Positions 1 through 4,815 of a stretch of DNA of 16,801 nt are shown here, in pieces. Location: the IMG/VR virus record IMGVR_UViG_2531839178_000016; one strand, 5' to 3'. Numbering within the stretch: position 1 is the stretch's first letter; the number at the start of each line of letters is the position of its first letter. Source of the DNA: a virus (taxonomy: Duplodnaviria > Heunggongvirae > Uroviricota > Caudoviricetes). Below the pieces are notes generated by a model, which was not told the DNA's origin, searched no databases, and was given only the letters and a program-made list of their open reading frames with translations. The translations under genes and the position numbers were made by a program.

Positions 1-228
1 GCTCATTTTGGCTGACAAACCAGCTCGTATCTCCTCGCGCTCAGACAGTGTCAGGTGAGCTACAGCCCGCTTACGCTCATGGGGTTTTATGCCGCCAGTA
101 TCCCTTAACATAGTGAAGATCGTTCCGGGTTTTGAACCCAGGATATTCGCTATTTCACTGAAGCCTGTTCCGTTCTTCCATAGTTCAAAAACAGAGGCTT
201 TTTCCTCTGCTGTAAATGTTCGTCTCAT
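1..228 (-). CDS. insI: IS30 transposase, N-terminal fragment (cut by window edge)
   Basis: Co-linear with the first 76 codons of the 383-aa IS30 transposase ORFs at 3580..4731 and 13238..14389 (MRRTFTAEEKASVFELWKNG...). Confidence 0.85.
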   Translation of the reverse strand, partial: MRRTFTAEEKASVFELWKNGTGFSEIANILGSKPGTIFTMLRDTGGIKPHERKRAVAHLTLSEREEIRAGLSAKMS

Positions 229-291
229 TCAAAAAACCTCCGCGACCCCATGTTTTCACATAACTGTTGCGTTGACCAGATTGAATCTACA
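1..291 (-). mobile_element. IS30, partial (IRL-proximal 291 bp; remainder lies beyond the window start)
   Basis: Positions 1..291 match the IRL end of the complete IS30 copy at 14162..14451 apart from one extra G near 279. Terminal sequence ...GATTGAATCTACA ends at 291. Confidence 0.9.
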
Positions 292-1206
292 ACCGCGCTC
301 TTGATGTCAGACTCCCTGAACAGTTCTCGATAATCGGGAAACTCAGAGCGCATTATCCTGTGGTCACACTCTGCCAAGTGTTCGGGGTTCATCGCAGCAG
401 CTACAGATACTGGAAAAACCGTCCTGAAAAACCAGACGGCAGACGGGCTGTATTACGCAGTCAGGTACTTGAGCTACATGGCATCAGCCATGGTTCGGCC
501 GGAGCAAGAAGCATCGCCACAATGGCAACCCGGAGAGGCTACCAGATGGGACGCTGGCTTGCTGGCAGGCTCATGAAAGAGCTGGGGCTGGTCAGCTGTC
601 AGCAGCCGACTCACCGGTATAAACGTGGTGGTCATGAACATGTTGCTATCCCTAACTACCTTGAAAGGCAGTTCGCCGTGACCGAGCCAAATCAGGTGTG
701 GTGCGGTGATGTGACCTATATCTGGACGGGTAAGCGCTGGGCGTACCTCGCCGTTGTTCTCGACCTGTTCGCAAGAAAACCAGTGGGCTGGGCCATGTCG
801 TTCTCGCCGGACAGCAGGCTCACCATGAAAGCGCTGGAAATGGCATGGGAAACCCGTGGTAAGCCCGGCGGGGTGATGTTCCACAGCGATCAGGGCAGTC
901 ATTATACGAGCAGGCAGTTCCGGCAGTTATTGTGGCGATACCAGATCAGACAGAGTATGAGCCGGCGCGGAAACTGCTGGGATAACAGCCCAATGGAACG
1001 CTTCTTCAGGAGTCTGAAGAACGAATGGATGCCGGTGGTGGGTTACGTAAGCTTCAGCGAGGCAGCTCACGCCATAACGGACTATATCGTTGGATATTAC
1101 AGCGCACTAAGACCGCACGAATATAACGGTGGGTTACCCCCAAACGAATCGGAAAATCGATACTGGAAAAACTCTAACTCGGTGGCCAGTTTTTGTTGAC
1201 CACTTC
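292..1206 (+). mobile_element. IS911 remnant (orfA 3-prime end, orfB, right inverted repeat); left part displaced by IS30
   Basis: 292..333 encodes [13 protein letters not shown], the IS911 OrfA C-terminus. The right end ...CCAGTTTTTGTTGACCACTTCA at 1206 is the complement of the recalled IS911 terminal repeat. Length 915 bp against about 1250 bp for intact IS911. Confidence 0.8.
360..1199 (+). CDS. insO: IS911 transposase OrfB frame (InsO-like, DDE integrase); upstream orfA interrupted by IS30, so probably not expressed as OrfAB
   Basis: 279-aa ORF with IS3-family catalytic core motifs ([18 protein letters not shown], ...[13 protein letters not shown]). Matches recalled IS911 InsO. Confidence 0.8.
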
Positions 1207-1419
1207 ATTTTGATATTTTCCAGCACCTCCGCCTTGGAGCTACCGGAGCAGTTGCGCGGGTCATCCGCACCATACAGAGGCGCTGGCATAATGGGAGCCT
1301 TATTTTCAGTAATCAGAAAGGAGGGTAATCGTTCTGGCTGTAACCATAATCATCTGCATGATTCTGGCTTACGTTTTTGCTGCGATTGTCTTTGTCTTTG
1401 AGAGTGGAAACCATATTTG

Positions 1420-1899
1420 CTACAGTTTCTGGTTTCTTTCCTTCAGTTTTTCTTTCAGTGTCTGCCCTGTTTCTGCAATGAATGGAATGCGGATTTCCAT
1501 CTGGTAACTGTCTGCGCCAGTCTTTCTGTTTGTGGTTAATACTTTCTGGAGGACGAGTCCGATTTTCTTTCCGTGAAACTCAGGTGCAACATATTTACTG
1601 ACGGAAACCATATGTTGCGTTAACTGCCCAATTCCTGTGCATCCCATCATGGCGTGAATAATGCTCGCCCCAAATTTATTTTCAGTGCCGTCATTCTTCT
1701 GAACACAAACACTGAGATATTGGATTTTCCGTCCGTCGTCGGATTCTCCAGAAAACTCAATGAATCGGGCACCTTTTTCTGATTGCTTGAGTTCTGCTTC
1801 GGTGATGTTAATGATATGCGCACCCGTTTCGGTAATAAAACCACCTTGTCCGGCGGTCAGTGCTGATTCTTCGTTATAAGTAAAAATCACTTCATCCAT
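1420..1899 (-). CDS. hypothetical phage protein (159 aa), last gene of the exo operon before the IS911 junction
   Basis: ORF start overlaps the exo stop (TAATG) on the same strand. No recognisable family from sequence alone. Confidence 0.5.
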   Translation of the reverse strand: MDEVIFTYNEESALTAGQGGFITETGAHIINITEAELKQSEKGARFIEFSGESDDGRKIQYLSVCVQKNDGTENKFGASIIHAMMGCTGIGQLTQHMVSVSKYVAPEFHGKKIGLVLQKVLTTNRKTGADSYQMEIRIPFIAETGQTLKEKLKERNQKL

Positions 1900-2588: not shown

Positions 2589-3190
2589 GACACGGCCTCG
2601 CTGCTATTTTCCGTGGTGGCGTGAATTTTCGCTTCCGCCGTGGCCTTGTTTCTGGCAGCTTTCTTTTTGACAAAATCAAGCGTTTTGACAGCTTCTTCCT
2701 GACTGAGATATTCATGTGATGCAATCGTGCGACGGAATGTTTTGGAACATAAGGGAAGCAGGTCATCCCATGTCTTGTTAATTTCGGTGATTGCCTGAGT
2801 GATCTCATTGATAATCTCATCTGATGCGGGAGTGACGTCACGCTCAGGGATGTGATCAGCATTCAGGATGATACCTTCACCGGCCTGAGTGTTCAGGTAG
2901 TCGATAGCTGTATCCAGGCGATCGCGACGGGGCCAGTATTTGCTGGCGCGCTTAACAATGGCTTTTCTGGCCATTTCATCGGGGAAACTATCCCACGGGC
3001 TACTTCCTCCGTTATTTCCGGCTTTGCTGCACGCCCTGATGACCTCGATTTCCCTGTTGCTCATCTCTTCGGTCAGATAGTCGCCTTCGGATGTTTTTAC
3101 GACACAATAACCGCCAATGCGTGCGCCCCTGTCTACGAATGGGTTGTATTTGTGCGTGGGGGCGCAGTCAATACCGTTGGACTCGTAAAT
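2585..3190 (-). pseudogene. recT: recT/bet-type single-strand annealing protein, C-terminal two-thirds (5-prime end removed by IS600 insertion at 3190/3191)
   Basis: The reading frame is open from the IS600 boundary: IYESNGIDCAPTHKYNPFVDRGARIGGYCVVKTSEGDYLTEEMSNREIEVIRACSKAGNNGGSSPWDSFPDEMARKAIVKRASKYWP..., which parallels E. coli RecT (...VTHVYAVARLKDGGTQFEVMTRKQIELVRSLSKAGNNGPW...MAKKTAIRRLFKYLP). The N-terminal part is at 11944..12291. Confidence 0.8.
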
Positions 3191-3254
3191 TGAGGTAGCC
3201 TGAGTTTAACGGACACTCCTTCCTGAAATAGAATGGCATCAGAAGGAGCTAATA

Positions 3255-3517
3255 ATGAGCAGAAAAACCCAACGTTACTCTAAAGAGTTCAAAGCCGAAG
3301 CTGTCAGAACGGTTCTTGAAAATCAACTTTCGATCAGTGAAGGCGCTTCCCGATTATCCCTTCCTGAAGGCACTTTAGGACAATGGGTTACCGCCGCCAG
3401 AAAAGGACTCGGTACTCCTGGTTCCCGCACGGTGGCTGAACTGGAATCTGAAATTCTGCAACTGCGTAAGGCGTTAAATGAAGCTCGCCTTGAGCGAGAT
3501 ATATTAAAAAAAGCAAC
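3255..3517 (+). pseudogene. IS600 orfA, interrupted by IS30 after ...ERDILKKAT
   Basis: MSRKTQRYSKEFKAEAVRTVLENQLSISEGASRLSLPEGTLGQWV... is the IS600 OrfA sequence. The frame reads into the IS30 terminal repeat at 3518. The remaining orfA codons (AYFAQESLKNTR*) resume after IS30 at 4741. Confidence 0.85.
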
Positions 3518-4738
3518 TGTAGATTCAATTGGTCAACGCAACAGTTATGTGAAAACATGGGGTCGCGGAGGTTTTTTGAATGAGACGAACATTTACAGCA
3601 GAGGAAAAAGCCTCTGTTTTTGAACTATGGAAGAACGGAACAGGCTTCAGTGAAATAGCGAATATCCTGGGTTCAAAACCCGGAACGATCTTCACTATGT
3701 TAAGGGATACTGGCGGCATAAAACCCCATGAGCGTAAGCGGGCTGTAGCTCACCTGACACTGTCTGAGCGCGAGGAGATACGAGCTGGTTTGTCAGCCAA
3801 AATGAGCATTCGTGCGATAGCTACTGCGCTGAATCGCAGTCCTTCGACGATCTCACGTGAAGTTCAGCGTAATCGGGGCAGACGCTATTACAAAGCTGTT
3901 GATGCTAATAACCGAGCCAACAGAATGGCGAAAAGGCCAAAACCGTGCTTACTGGATCAAAATTTACCATTGCGAAAGCTTGTTCTGGAAAAGCTGGAGA
4001 TGAAATGGTCTCCAGAGCAAATATCAGGATGGTTAAGGCGAACAAAACCACGTCAAAAAACGCTGCGAATATCACCTGAGACAATTTATAAAACGCTGTA
4101 CTTTCGTAGCCGTGAAGCGCTACACCACCTGAATATACAGCATCTGCGACGGTCGCATAGCCTTCGCCATGGCAGGCGTCATACCCGCAAAGGCGAAAGA
4201 GGTACGATTAACATAGTGAACGGAACACCAATTCACGAACGTTCCCGAAATATCGATAACAGACGCTCTCTGGGGCATTGGGAGGGCGATTTAGTCTCAG
4301 GTACAAAAAACTCTCATATAGCCACACTTGTAGACCGAAAATCACGTTATACGATCATCCTTAGACTCAGGGGCAAAGATTCTGTCTCAGTAAATCAGGC
4401 TCTTACCGACAAATTCCTGAGTTTACCGTCAGAACTCAGAAAATCACTGACATGGGACAGAGGAATGGAACTGGCCAGACATCTAGAATTTACTGTCAGC
4501 ACCGGCGTTAAAGTTTACTTCTGCGATCCTCAGAGTCCTTGGCAGCGGGGAACAAATGAGAACACAAATGGGCTAATTCGGCAGTACTTTCCTAAAAAGA
4601 CATGTCTTGCCCAATATACTCAACATGAACTAGATCTGGTTGCTGCTCAGCTAAACAACAGACCGAGAAAGACACTGAAGTTCAAAACACCGAAAGAGAT
4701 AATTGAAAGGGGTGTTGCATTGACAGATTGAATCTACA
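3518..4738 (+). mobile_element. IS30 (complete, 1221 bp) nested in IS600; flanked by 2-bp duplication AC
   Basis: Terminal repeats TGTAGATTCAATTGGTCAACGC (3518) and GCATTGACAGATTGAATCTACA (ends 4738). AC is present on both flanks (3516..3517 and 4739..4740). Confidence 0.95.
3580..4731 (+). CDS. insI: IS30 transposase (383 aa)
   Basis: Full-length ORF with N-terminal HTH and C-terminal DDE-type catalytic domain, bounded by IS30 inverted repeats. Identical translation to the copy at 13238..14389. Confidence 0.95.
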   Translation: MRRTFTAEEKASVFELWKNGTGFSEIANILGSKPGTIFTMLRDTGGIKPHERKRAVAHLTLSEREEIRAGLSAKMSIRAIATALNRSPSTISREVQRNRGRRYYKAVDANNRANRMAKRPKPCLLDQNLPLRKLVLEKLEMKWSPEQISGWLRRTKPRQKTLRISPETIYKTLYFRSREALHHLNIQHLRRSHSLRHGRRHTRKGERGTINIVNGTPIHERSRNIDNRRSLGHWEGDLVSGTKNSHIATLVDRKSRYTIILRLRGKDSVSVNQALTDKFLSLPSELRKSLTWDRGMELARHLEFTVSTGVKVYFCDPQSPWQRGTNENTNGLIRQYFPKKTCLAQYTQHELDLVAAQLNNRPRKTLKFKTPKEIIERGVALTD

Positions 4739-4815
4739 ACAGCGTATTTTGCACAGGAGTCGCTGAAAAATACGCGTTAATCGAACAATGGCGACAACAA
4801 TTTCCCATTGAAGCG

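Follow-up and report, generated by a model that had tools for sequence, protein, structure and literature searches.

IS30 in IS911 and IS600 on one prophage contig

The DNA analysed here, called the window below, is the entire 16,801-bp draft contig AKNA01000038.1 (GCA_000268145.1). It carries three copies of the insertion sequence (IS) IS30, of which copy A lies in IS911, copy B in IS600 and copy C in a second IS600. IS911 and IS600 are different elements of the IS3 family, and in both of them IS30 is found at the same codon of the first transposase gene, orfA. The features at these two junctions, with IRL and IRR for the left and right inverted repeats of IS30, are the following.

1..291, minus strand: IS30 copy A, the 291 bp next to IRL, with the IRL tip at 291; the remainder is cut off by the contig start.
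292..1207, plus strand: 3' part of IS911 (about nt 335-1250 of the element; tblastn clusters C0/C1), with the right end ...GACCACTTCA at 1207.
3191..3517, plus strand: IS600 copy 1, 5' part (nt 1-327), with orfA beginning at 3255; an A7 run (3506-3512) is followed by G at 3513, and the first AC occupies 3516-3517.
3518..4738, plus strand: IS30 copy B, complete, 1221 bp; IRL at 3518, end of IRR at 4738, transposase open reading frame (ORF) at 3580-4731 (383 aa).
4739..5677, plus strand: IS600 copy 1, 3' part; second AC at 4739-4740, orfB at 4816-5634, right end ...CACCTCA at 5677.

Copies B and C of IS30 are 1221 bp long, and their IRL (TGTAGATTCAATTGGTCAACGCAAC) and IRR (TGTAGATTCAATCTGTCAATGCAAC) fit terminal inverted repeats of about 26 bp starting TGTAGATTCAAT; copy A matches copy B across 278 nt. 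The transposase ORF at 3580-4731 matches the Pfam families HTH_38 (1.6e-23, the N-terminal helix-turn-helix) and rve (4.1e-14, the DDE core), and IS30 of the window differs from IS30A of Escherichia coli K-12 at 3 of 1221 positions. Reconstructed IS911 is 1249 bp long, ends in TGAAGTGG...CCACTTCA, encodes OrfA and OrfB in 0/-1 frames with an A6G slippery motif in their overlap, and matches HTH_Tnp_1 (6e-14) and rve (2.9e-32). Its 3' part in the window comprises the second AC of the duplication (292-293), a 13-residue OrfA tail (292-333) and orfB to 1199, with a Pfam rve/HTH_21 match at 360-1199. The K-12 annotation and RefSeq both name IS911 at the identical junction, RefSeq with the label 'IS3-like element IS911 family transposase'. 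The name IS600 likewise comes from the K-12 annotation at the identical junction. An intact IS600 in contig L142 is 1264 bp long, with ends TGAGGT...ACCTCA and an A-run slippery motif; the element matches HTH_Tnp_1 (1.5e-20, on reconstructed OrfA) and rve (3.2e-26), and is flanked by 3-bp duplications at several sites. Copy 1 with its IS30 thus forms a composite of 2487 bp (1264 + 1221 + 2).

The junction of copy A with IS911 reads ...gttgcgttgaccagattgaatctaca|ACCGCGCTCTTGATG. The left half of this IS911 is outside the window and can be seen in the near-identical contig L139 (...GAAATATTAAAAAAGGCTAC|IRR-IS30-IRL|ACCGCGCTC), where the target-site duplication is AC. Copy B is preceded by ...ATATTAAAAAAAGCAAC and followed by ACAGCGTATTTTGCACAGG, again a duplication of AC, and past it OrfA continues as (T)AYFAQESLKNTR* to the TAA stop at 4778-4780. 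Both the IS911 OrfA tail after the IS30 end at 291 and the resumption of IS600 OrfA had been read in this way in an earlier examination of the letters alone (the original prediction), and both readings hold. In an alignment of the reconstructed proteins (IS600 ...RDILKKA-T-AYFAQ..., IS911 ...NEILKKA-T-ALLMS...), the Thr codon after ILKKA holds the IS30 ends in IS911 (291) and in IS600 (3518/4738), and the AC of this codon is duplicated in each. The insertion points are 2-3 nt downstream of the slippery motif (A7G in IS600, A6G in IS911), and IS911(+) carries IS30(-) where IS600(+) carries IS30(+). An equivalent spot just past the A-run frameshift motif, hit in opposite orientations, is what the original prediction had proposed, and the sequence confirms it. 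Its description of the target as a GCAAC|AC-type site needs correction for IS911, whose actual sequence is GGCTAC|AC.

Contig L142 comes from a relative of the same prophage (99.6-99.9% identical) in which both sites are empty, reading AAAAAAGGCTACCGCGCTC in IS911 and AAAAAAAGCAACAGCGTATTTTG in IS600, and so provides direct before/after pairs for both insertions. Mapped on these intact alleles and on the OrfA alignment, the two positions are homologous. They represent one position of about 1250 in each of two elements whose DNA is only 53% identical, and one event plus gene conversion therefore cannot link both insertions.

Sampled IS30 ends adjoin the frameshift window of several IS3-family elements

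To gather IS30 ends, exact-pattern scans were run over three sets: one genome from each species (13 loci), contigs from metagenomes (at least 120 loci) and viral contigs (39 loci). Together with the window and ECONIH1 these scans gave 265 end flanks in 61 half-site clusters, all from natural insertions. By tblastn with the OrfA and OrfB proteins of IS600 and IS911, 19 clusters were assigned to IS3-family elements, and one more was added as the partner half of an assigned cluster. Combinations of left and right flanks from metagenomic contigs were not counted as events because they may be mis-assemblies.

Three quarters of the sampled ends (199/265, 75%) adjoin one half of the orfA/orfB frameshift window. 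The hosts include at least five clearly distinct IS3-family elements: IS911 and IS600 themselves, two elements designated A (unnamed) and B (IS911-like), and one that is IS3-like (L112), with further singletons. Element A, whose site reads GGGACATATTAAAAAAAGCC[GC]GGCGTACTTCGC, has an OrfB 38% identical to that of IS600, and the OrfB of element B is 54% identical to that of IS911; E. coli annotation calls element A 'IS3 family transposase' only, and for element B it adds to this label a 94.7% match with an ISEc31-annotated copy. In IS911, IS600, A and B, IS30 was found complete and with 2-bp duplications in either orientation, and the IS600::IS30 orientation is (+) in 13 of 14 complete copies. 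Overall, a 2-bp target duplication flanks 59 of the 87 complete IS30 copies sampled, with AC|IS30|AC in the IS600 of the window and in the IS911 of L139.

Such a distribution might in principle arise by survivorship only, if IS30 inserted widely and only insertions in neutral DNA persisted. Insertions in other ISs are harmless, the 75% of sampled ends that lie within IS3-family elements would follow, and a few insertions do occur elsewhere in IS3-family orfB genes (clusters C24 and C29). However, neutrality extends over all of the roughly 1250 positions of a host, and also over IS2, IS150, IS1, IS4 and IS5, whereas 199 ends share one dinucleotide and only 4 of the sampled ends outside the frameshift window lie elsewhere in an IS3-family element. 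No sampled IS30 end mapped to IS2 or IS150, and the frameshift windows of these two elements were thus not hit. We regard survivorship as a highly improbable explanation of the pattern.

A matrix from unrelated targets selects the same dinucleotide

To avoid circularity, a 13-nt half-site matrix was built from the 41 clusters outside IS3-family elements. Its consensus, which is mirrored about the insertion point, is T(-13) n A(-11) A(-10) n A(-8) A(-7) n G(-5) C(-4) n [NN], so the re-derived motif is a 24-bp symmetric site of 11+2+11 bp. A 24-bp symmetric hot-spot consensus for IS30 goes back to Olasz 1998, as cited in PMC12445084 and PMC9333248. Scored with this matrix, the frameshift windows and a known target gave the following values; the position of the known target, the lambda hot spot LHS, was taken from the lambda coordinates in PMC9333248.

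IS600, nt 326-327: 18.4 bits, rank 1 in the element (next best 7.0).
IS911, nt 334-335: 17.7 bits, rank 1 in the element (next best 10.6).
K-12 IS3, nt 333, the equivalent spot: 11.0 bits, rank 1 in the element; in L112 the spot is occupied.
IS2 and IS150, slippery windows: at most 1.3 bits.
Lambda LHS, 33290: 9.2 bits, rank 25 of 48,478 positions (top 0.05%).

The IS600 and IS911 sites therefore match a consensus re-derived from 41 non-IS3 half-sites, with insertion at the central 2 bp, and by this match would belong to the hot-spot target class. The IS600 site again ranks first when the window is scanned free of IS30, and the result is little altered when training sites containing A5 are dropped. 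In shuffled DNA about one site of 16 bits or more is expected per 600 kb. Across 1.3 Mb of loci, three of the five top-scoring sites are unoccupied IS3-family frameshift windows. In IS911, IS600, IS3 and relatives this window has the form 5'-T-AAAAAA(A/G)-GC-n-[NN]-n-GC-G...T-rich, and its match to the half-site is very good on the upstream arm and fair on the downstream arm.

A preference of IS30 for the A-run window of IS3-family elements had been put forward in the original prediction and is supported, in that an independent matrix picks the exact dinucleotide in IS600, IS911 and IS3. What appears to be preferred is the sequence T-AAAAAA(A/G)-GC-n-[NN]-n-GC with its T-rich arm, and not IS3-family elements as such.

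The IS911 region downstream of the slippery motif forms a frameshift-stimulating structure. IS30 might accordingly be directed by structure or protein, through the DNA of the frameshift stem-loop or pseudoknot recognised as a cruciform or through bound OrfA; the insertion site does lie between the slippery motif and the presumed region of the stimulating structure, and the target is roughly symmetrical. Yet targets outside the IS3 family share the same linear motif, among them the K-12 IS30C site, a site in L168 (TAAAGAAGGCT-CT-GACCTTTCTGA) and lambda LHS, while IS2 and IS150 also frameshift, lack the motif, and have no IS30 end on them in the sample. Recognition of this kind is the least probable of the explanations that we considered.

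Probable spread of composites to many genomes

Junctions were counted in 5,426 complete E. coli genomes. The IS600L|IRL junction is present in 1,284 genomes, IRL|IS911R, with IS30(-), in 1,019, and IS911L|IRL, with IS30(+), in 1,041. The 2487-bp IS600::IS30 composite was found at five sites (L114, L167, L151, L072 and L173) with perfect 3-4-bp repeats (GATA, TAT, GTA, AAC and TCC), the L151 and L173 composites coming from one genome, IMGVR_UViG_2869924733. These five sites, and the single orientation in 13 of 14 complete copies, suggest that the disabled composite has been moved as a unit in trans by IS600 transposase. The high junction counts probably reflect spread of composites and not repeated hits.

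The window's IS911 copy could be identified across genomes by its outer flanks, AGCAACTTGATAATG|...|TTTTGATATTTTCCA. It carries IS30(+) in CP027027.1 and PSSP01000001.1, and IS30(-) in AAMJ02000007.1, UYIS01000022.1, L139 and the window itself; in L142 it is empty. In the second IS600 copy, the orientation of IS30 is opposite between the window and PSSP01000001.1. These allelic states are the outcome either of repeated hits on the site or of allele exchange with other IS911::IS30 copies, and under either reading the same dinucleotide was hit independently at least twice.

An alternative account of such abundance would be one or a few ancestral insertions, with everything else due to the spread of composites and gene conversion and with no need for a target preference. 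It draws on the identical sequence of each junction in about 1,000-1,300 of the 5,426 genomes, on the five composites with perfect duplications, on the near-uniform orientation in IS600, and on the IS30 copies of the genomes compared, which differ by only 0-3 single-nucleotide polymorphisms (SNPs). It can make no link between IS911 and IS600, which are 53% identical, and host flanks differ right up to the junction, so that no shared segment of IS30 plus flank was imported. It also leaves unaccounted for the same dinucleotide in at least five distinct IS3-family elements, four of them hit both ways with correct 2-bp duplications, and a position predicted by a matrix from unrelated sites. A single ancestral event followed by gene conversion, which the original prediction had named as the alternative to be excluded, fails on the same two counts, the identity of the hosts and the number of distinct elements hit. 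Ancestral spread accounts for copy number, not for site choice; as the sole explanation it is refuted, and we consider it unlikely overall.

A model for insertion at the frameshift window

We favour hot-spot-directed insertion of IS30 at the frameshift window of a subset of IS3-family elements, by sequence match, and would give this reading a probability of roughly 0.85. IS30 transposes by copy-out-paste-in, in which the joined inverted-repeat ends of a circle or dimer attack two phosphates, spaced 2 bp from each other, in a near-palindromic 24-bp target and so produce the 2-bp duplication (PMC9333248). Target recognition is ascribed to the N-terminal helix-turn-helix in PMC9333248 and in PMC1525189, the latter citing Nagy 2004. 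As the frameshift window closely fits the IS30 target, IS30 lands on the same central dinucleotide in either orientation; the use of this window would rest on its linear sequence. Insertion there removes the last ~13 codons of OrfA and parts the slippery site from orfB, with the ends of the host IS left intact. With the slippery site separated from orfB the host IS cannot make OrfAB, in agreement with the inactivation of the host transposase that had been predicted. The resulting 2.5-kb composites may then be moved in trans, carried by plasmids and phages and exchanged through IS recombination, reaching very high copy numbers, and an insertion inside another IS would cost the cell nothing and so persist. 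The three IS30 copies of the window would in turn be substrates for recombination, as may be reflected in a recT gene that is split and inverted and in the hybrid flanks of relatives.

Several points weigh against this account. The natural insertions sampled are survivors, and selection accounts for part of their enrichment in neutral DNA. Nor are the copies independent of each other, the (+) orientation of 13 of 14 IS600::IS30 copies pointing to the spread of one composite. The three states of the IS911 copy could reflect gene conversion from other IS911::IS30 copies. Many of the sampled contigs are metagenomic, and chimeric flanks in them may be mis-assemblies. Lastly, the matrix derives from natural insertions, is small (41 half-sites) and is no more than roughly predictive, with LHS at rank 25 and not 1; it is informative but coarse.

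A more far-reaching possibility, which we advance tentatively and consider doubtful, is that IS30 is largely a parasite of the IS3 family, its target preference having converged on, or been kept on, the constrained window T-AAAAAAR-GC-n-NN-n-GC. Since this window has to serve at once as slippery motif and as coding sequence for the conserved OrfA end ILKKA(T/A)A, the site would resist mutation. If so, IS30 would gain a multicopy landing site that does no harm, transport by way of the host IS ends, as in the 2487-bp IS600::IS30, and a competitor whose transposase is knocked out.

Relation to known IS30 insertions

In the hot-spot targeting described for lambda LHS (PMC9333248), too, IS30 enters a near-palindromic 24-bp target at its central 2 bp, makes a 2-bp duplication and occurs in both orientations. 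Unlike LHS, the targets described here lie in other transposable elements, as a window that is both conserved and functional, and they score 17-18 bits against 9.2 for LHS. ISs that target repetitive extragenic palindromic (REP) sequences (PMC1525189), and IS30 and IS911 when they target their own inverted repeats, are comparable in that a DNA-binding domain picks a short, partly palindromic repeat at which insertions accumulate; here, the repeated target is a frameshift window within the coding sequence of another IS family, and the host transposase is disabled.

The original prediction noted an IS30 within IS911 in K-12, which is right according to the K-12 annotation of IS911A::IS30A (insN / insI1, in CP4-6) and PMC9333248. 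Its junctions are identical to those described above (...AAAAAAGGCTAC|IS30|ACCGCGCTC), but K-12 IS30A is (+) in IS911 where the IS30 of the window is (-). At the KpLE2 locus of K-12 (IS911B-IS30D-IS600; insO / insI3 / insM), IS30D, with junctions that are likewise identical, lies between the left half of IS911 and the reverse complement of the left half of IS600, ...AAAAAAAGCAAC. K-12 thus has no complete IS600::IS30, a single IS30 joining IS911 and IS600 halves, whereas ECONIH1 keeps both composites, 5 kb apart.

The hot-spot specificity of IS30 and the K-12 IS911A::IS30A insertion are already known. What would be new is that the IS3-family frameshift window, judged by sequence, is a major natural hot spot of IS30. 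Our literature search found no statement of IS3-family frameshift windows as IS30 hot spots; the text of Olasz 1998 lay outside that search, and an earlier mention is possible. Such a hot spot would explain the location of most natural IS30 copies in E. coli, Shigella and their relatives, two of the three full K-12 copies among them, and would predict which IS3-family elements are vulnerable (IS911, IS600, IS3 and motif-bearing relatives) and which are not (IS2, IS150). It would also identify a natural target that scores well above the experimental lambda LHS, and a case in which one IS family systematically disables a second one where the latter is most constrained. The nested composites, and the presence of several IS30 copies, would drive prophage inversions, hybrid junctions and deletions, as in this contig. 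For annotation, IS911 or IS600 'fragments' beside IS30 would be better treated as parts of a single interrupted element, or as outcomes of recombination between IS30 copies.

Rearrangements in the remainder of the window

Between and beyond the insertions described above, the window contains the following.

1208..3190, minus strand: prophage recombination module between the two host ISs; 1420-1899 is an ORF, 1899-2588 encodes a YqaJ-type exonuclease (Pfam YqaJ 7e-28), and 2585-3190 encodes the C-terminal part of RecT (RecT profile positions 106-177), interrupted by IS600.
5678..12291, mixed strands: prophage genes, among them a helicase gene and the other, N-terminal portion of this recT.
11893..12291, plus strand: N-terminal part of recT (Pfam RecT profile positions 5-87).
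12292..14723, minus strand: second IS600::IS30 composite, with the IS600 3' part at 12292-13230, IS30 copy C at 13231-14451 and the IS600 5' part at 14452-14723.

The original prediction recognised the composite at IS600 copy 1 and missed the second one. The latter is inverted, and its 5' part lacks 55 bp of IS600 beside the IS30 IRL (junction at 14450-14456). The missing segment is bounded by two GCAACTG repeats, one of them created by the IS600/IS30 junction. The right junction of this composite is as in copy 1, and copy C differs from copy B/copy 1 by one SNP (window 3939, A vs G). We considered copy C as a separate insertion at a second IS600 site, GAAATTCTGCA-AC. This site scores -2.4 (rank 67 of 1240), and this poor score, together with a right junction identical to that of copy 1, makes a 55-bp deletion between the GCAACTG repeats more likely. 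A microhomology deletion, possibly tied to IS30 copy-out, is therefore favoured. Searched for in complete E. coli genomes, the deletion junction gave only undeleted two-piece matches among the matches listed. In a separate metagenome locus (L027), an IS30 IRR (flank ...GAAATTCTGCAACT|) adjoins IS600 sequence 1 bp from the copy C deletion junction, with an unrelated IS3-like half on the other side; this may be a weak secondary target, another deletion or a mis-assembly of the metagenome.

The two halves of recT, split by IS600, face in opposite directions about 8.7 kb apart (2585-3190 on the minus strand, 11893-12291 on the plus strand). Taken together, AAT|IS600 at 3188-3190 and the reverse complement of ATT at 12289-12291 re-form a 3-bp duplication of IS600; the remaining two flanks, TTG / AAG, give no clean duplication. 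The restored AAT indicates an inversion through recombination between the two inverted IS600 copies.

Hybrid junctions were also seen among close relatives of the prophage (L187, which is CP027027.1, and L188, L189, L190 and L142; at about 3441-4661 and 18200-20700 in coordinates that follow the orientation of the window). They pass from the reverse complement of IS600R via IS30 to the reverse complement of IS911L, or from an IS30 end into IS911R, and three or more IS30 copies appear to shuffle the prophage region.

Copy A has an extra G in its IRL at 279 (TGTAGATTCAATcTGGTC on the IS30 strand). We considered whether this IRL (TGTAGATTCAATcTGG) was an IRL/IRR hybrid resulting from targeting of inverted repeats; it proved to be a private 1-bp insertion, missing in L139 and in 172 other IRLs, the IRL being canonical in 172 of the 173 others sampled. 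The extra G could be a genuine private change in an end bound by the transposase, or a draft-assembly error near the contig end.

At IS600 copy 1, the truncated OrfA runs through the IRL of IS30 to form a 122-aa ORF at 3255-3623 (...ILKKATVDSIGQRNSYVKTW...), and related genomes have this fusion annotated as a gene. Finally, the 7100-9900 region, upstream of the helicase, holds a HicA/HicB toxin-antitoxin pair together with a cI-like repressor (Peptidase_S24), as judged from Pfam matches (loci L181-L190).

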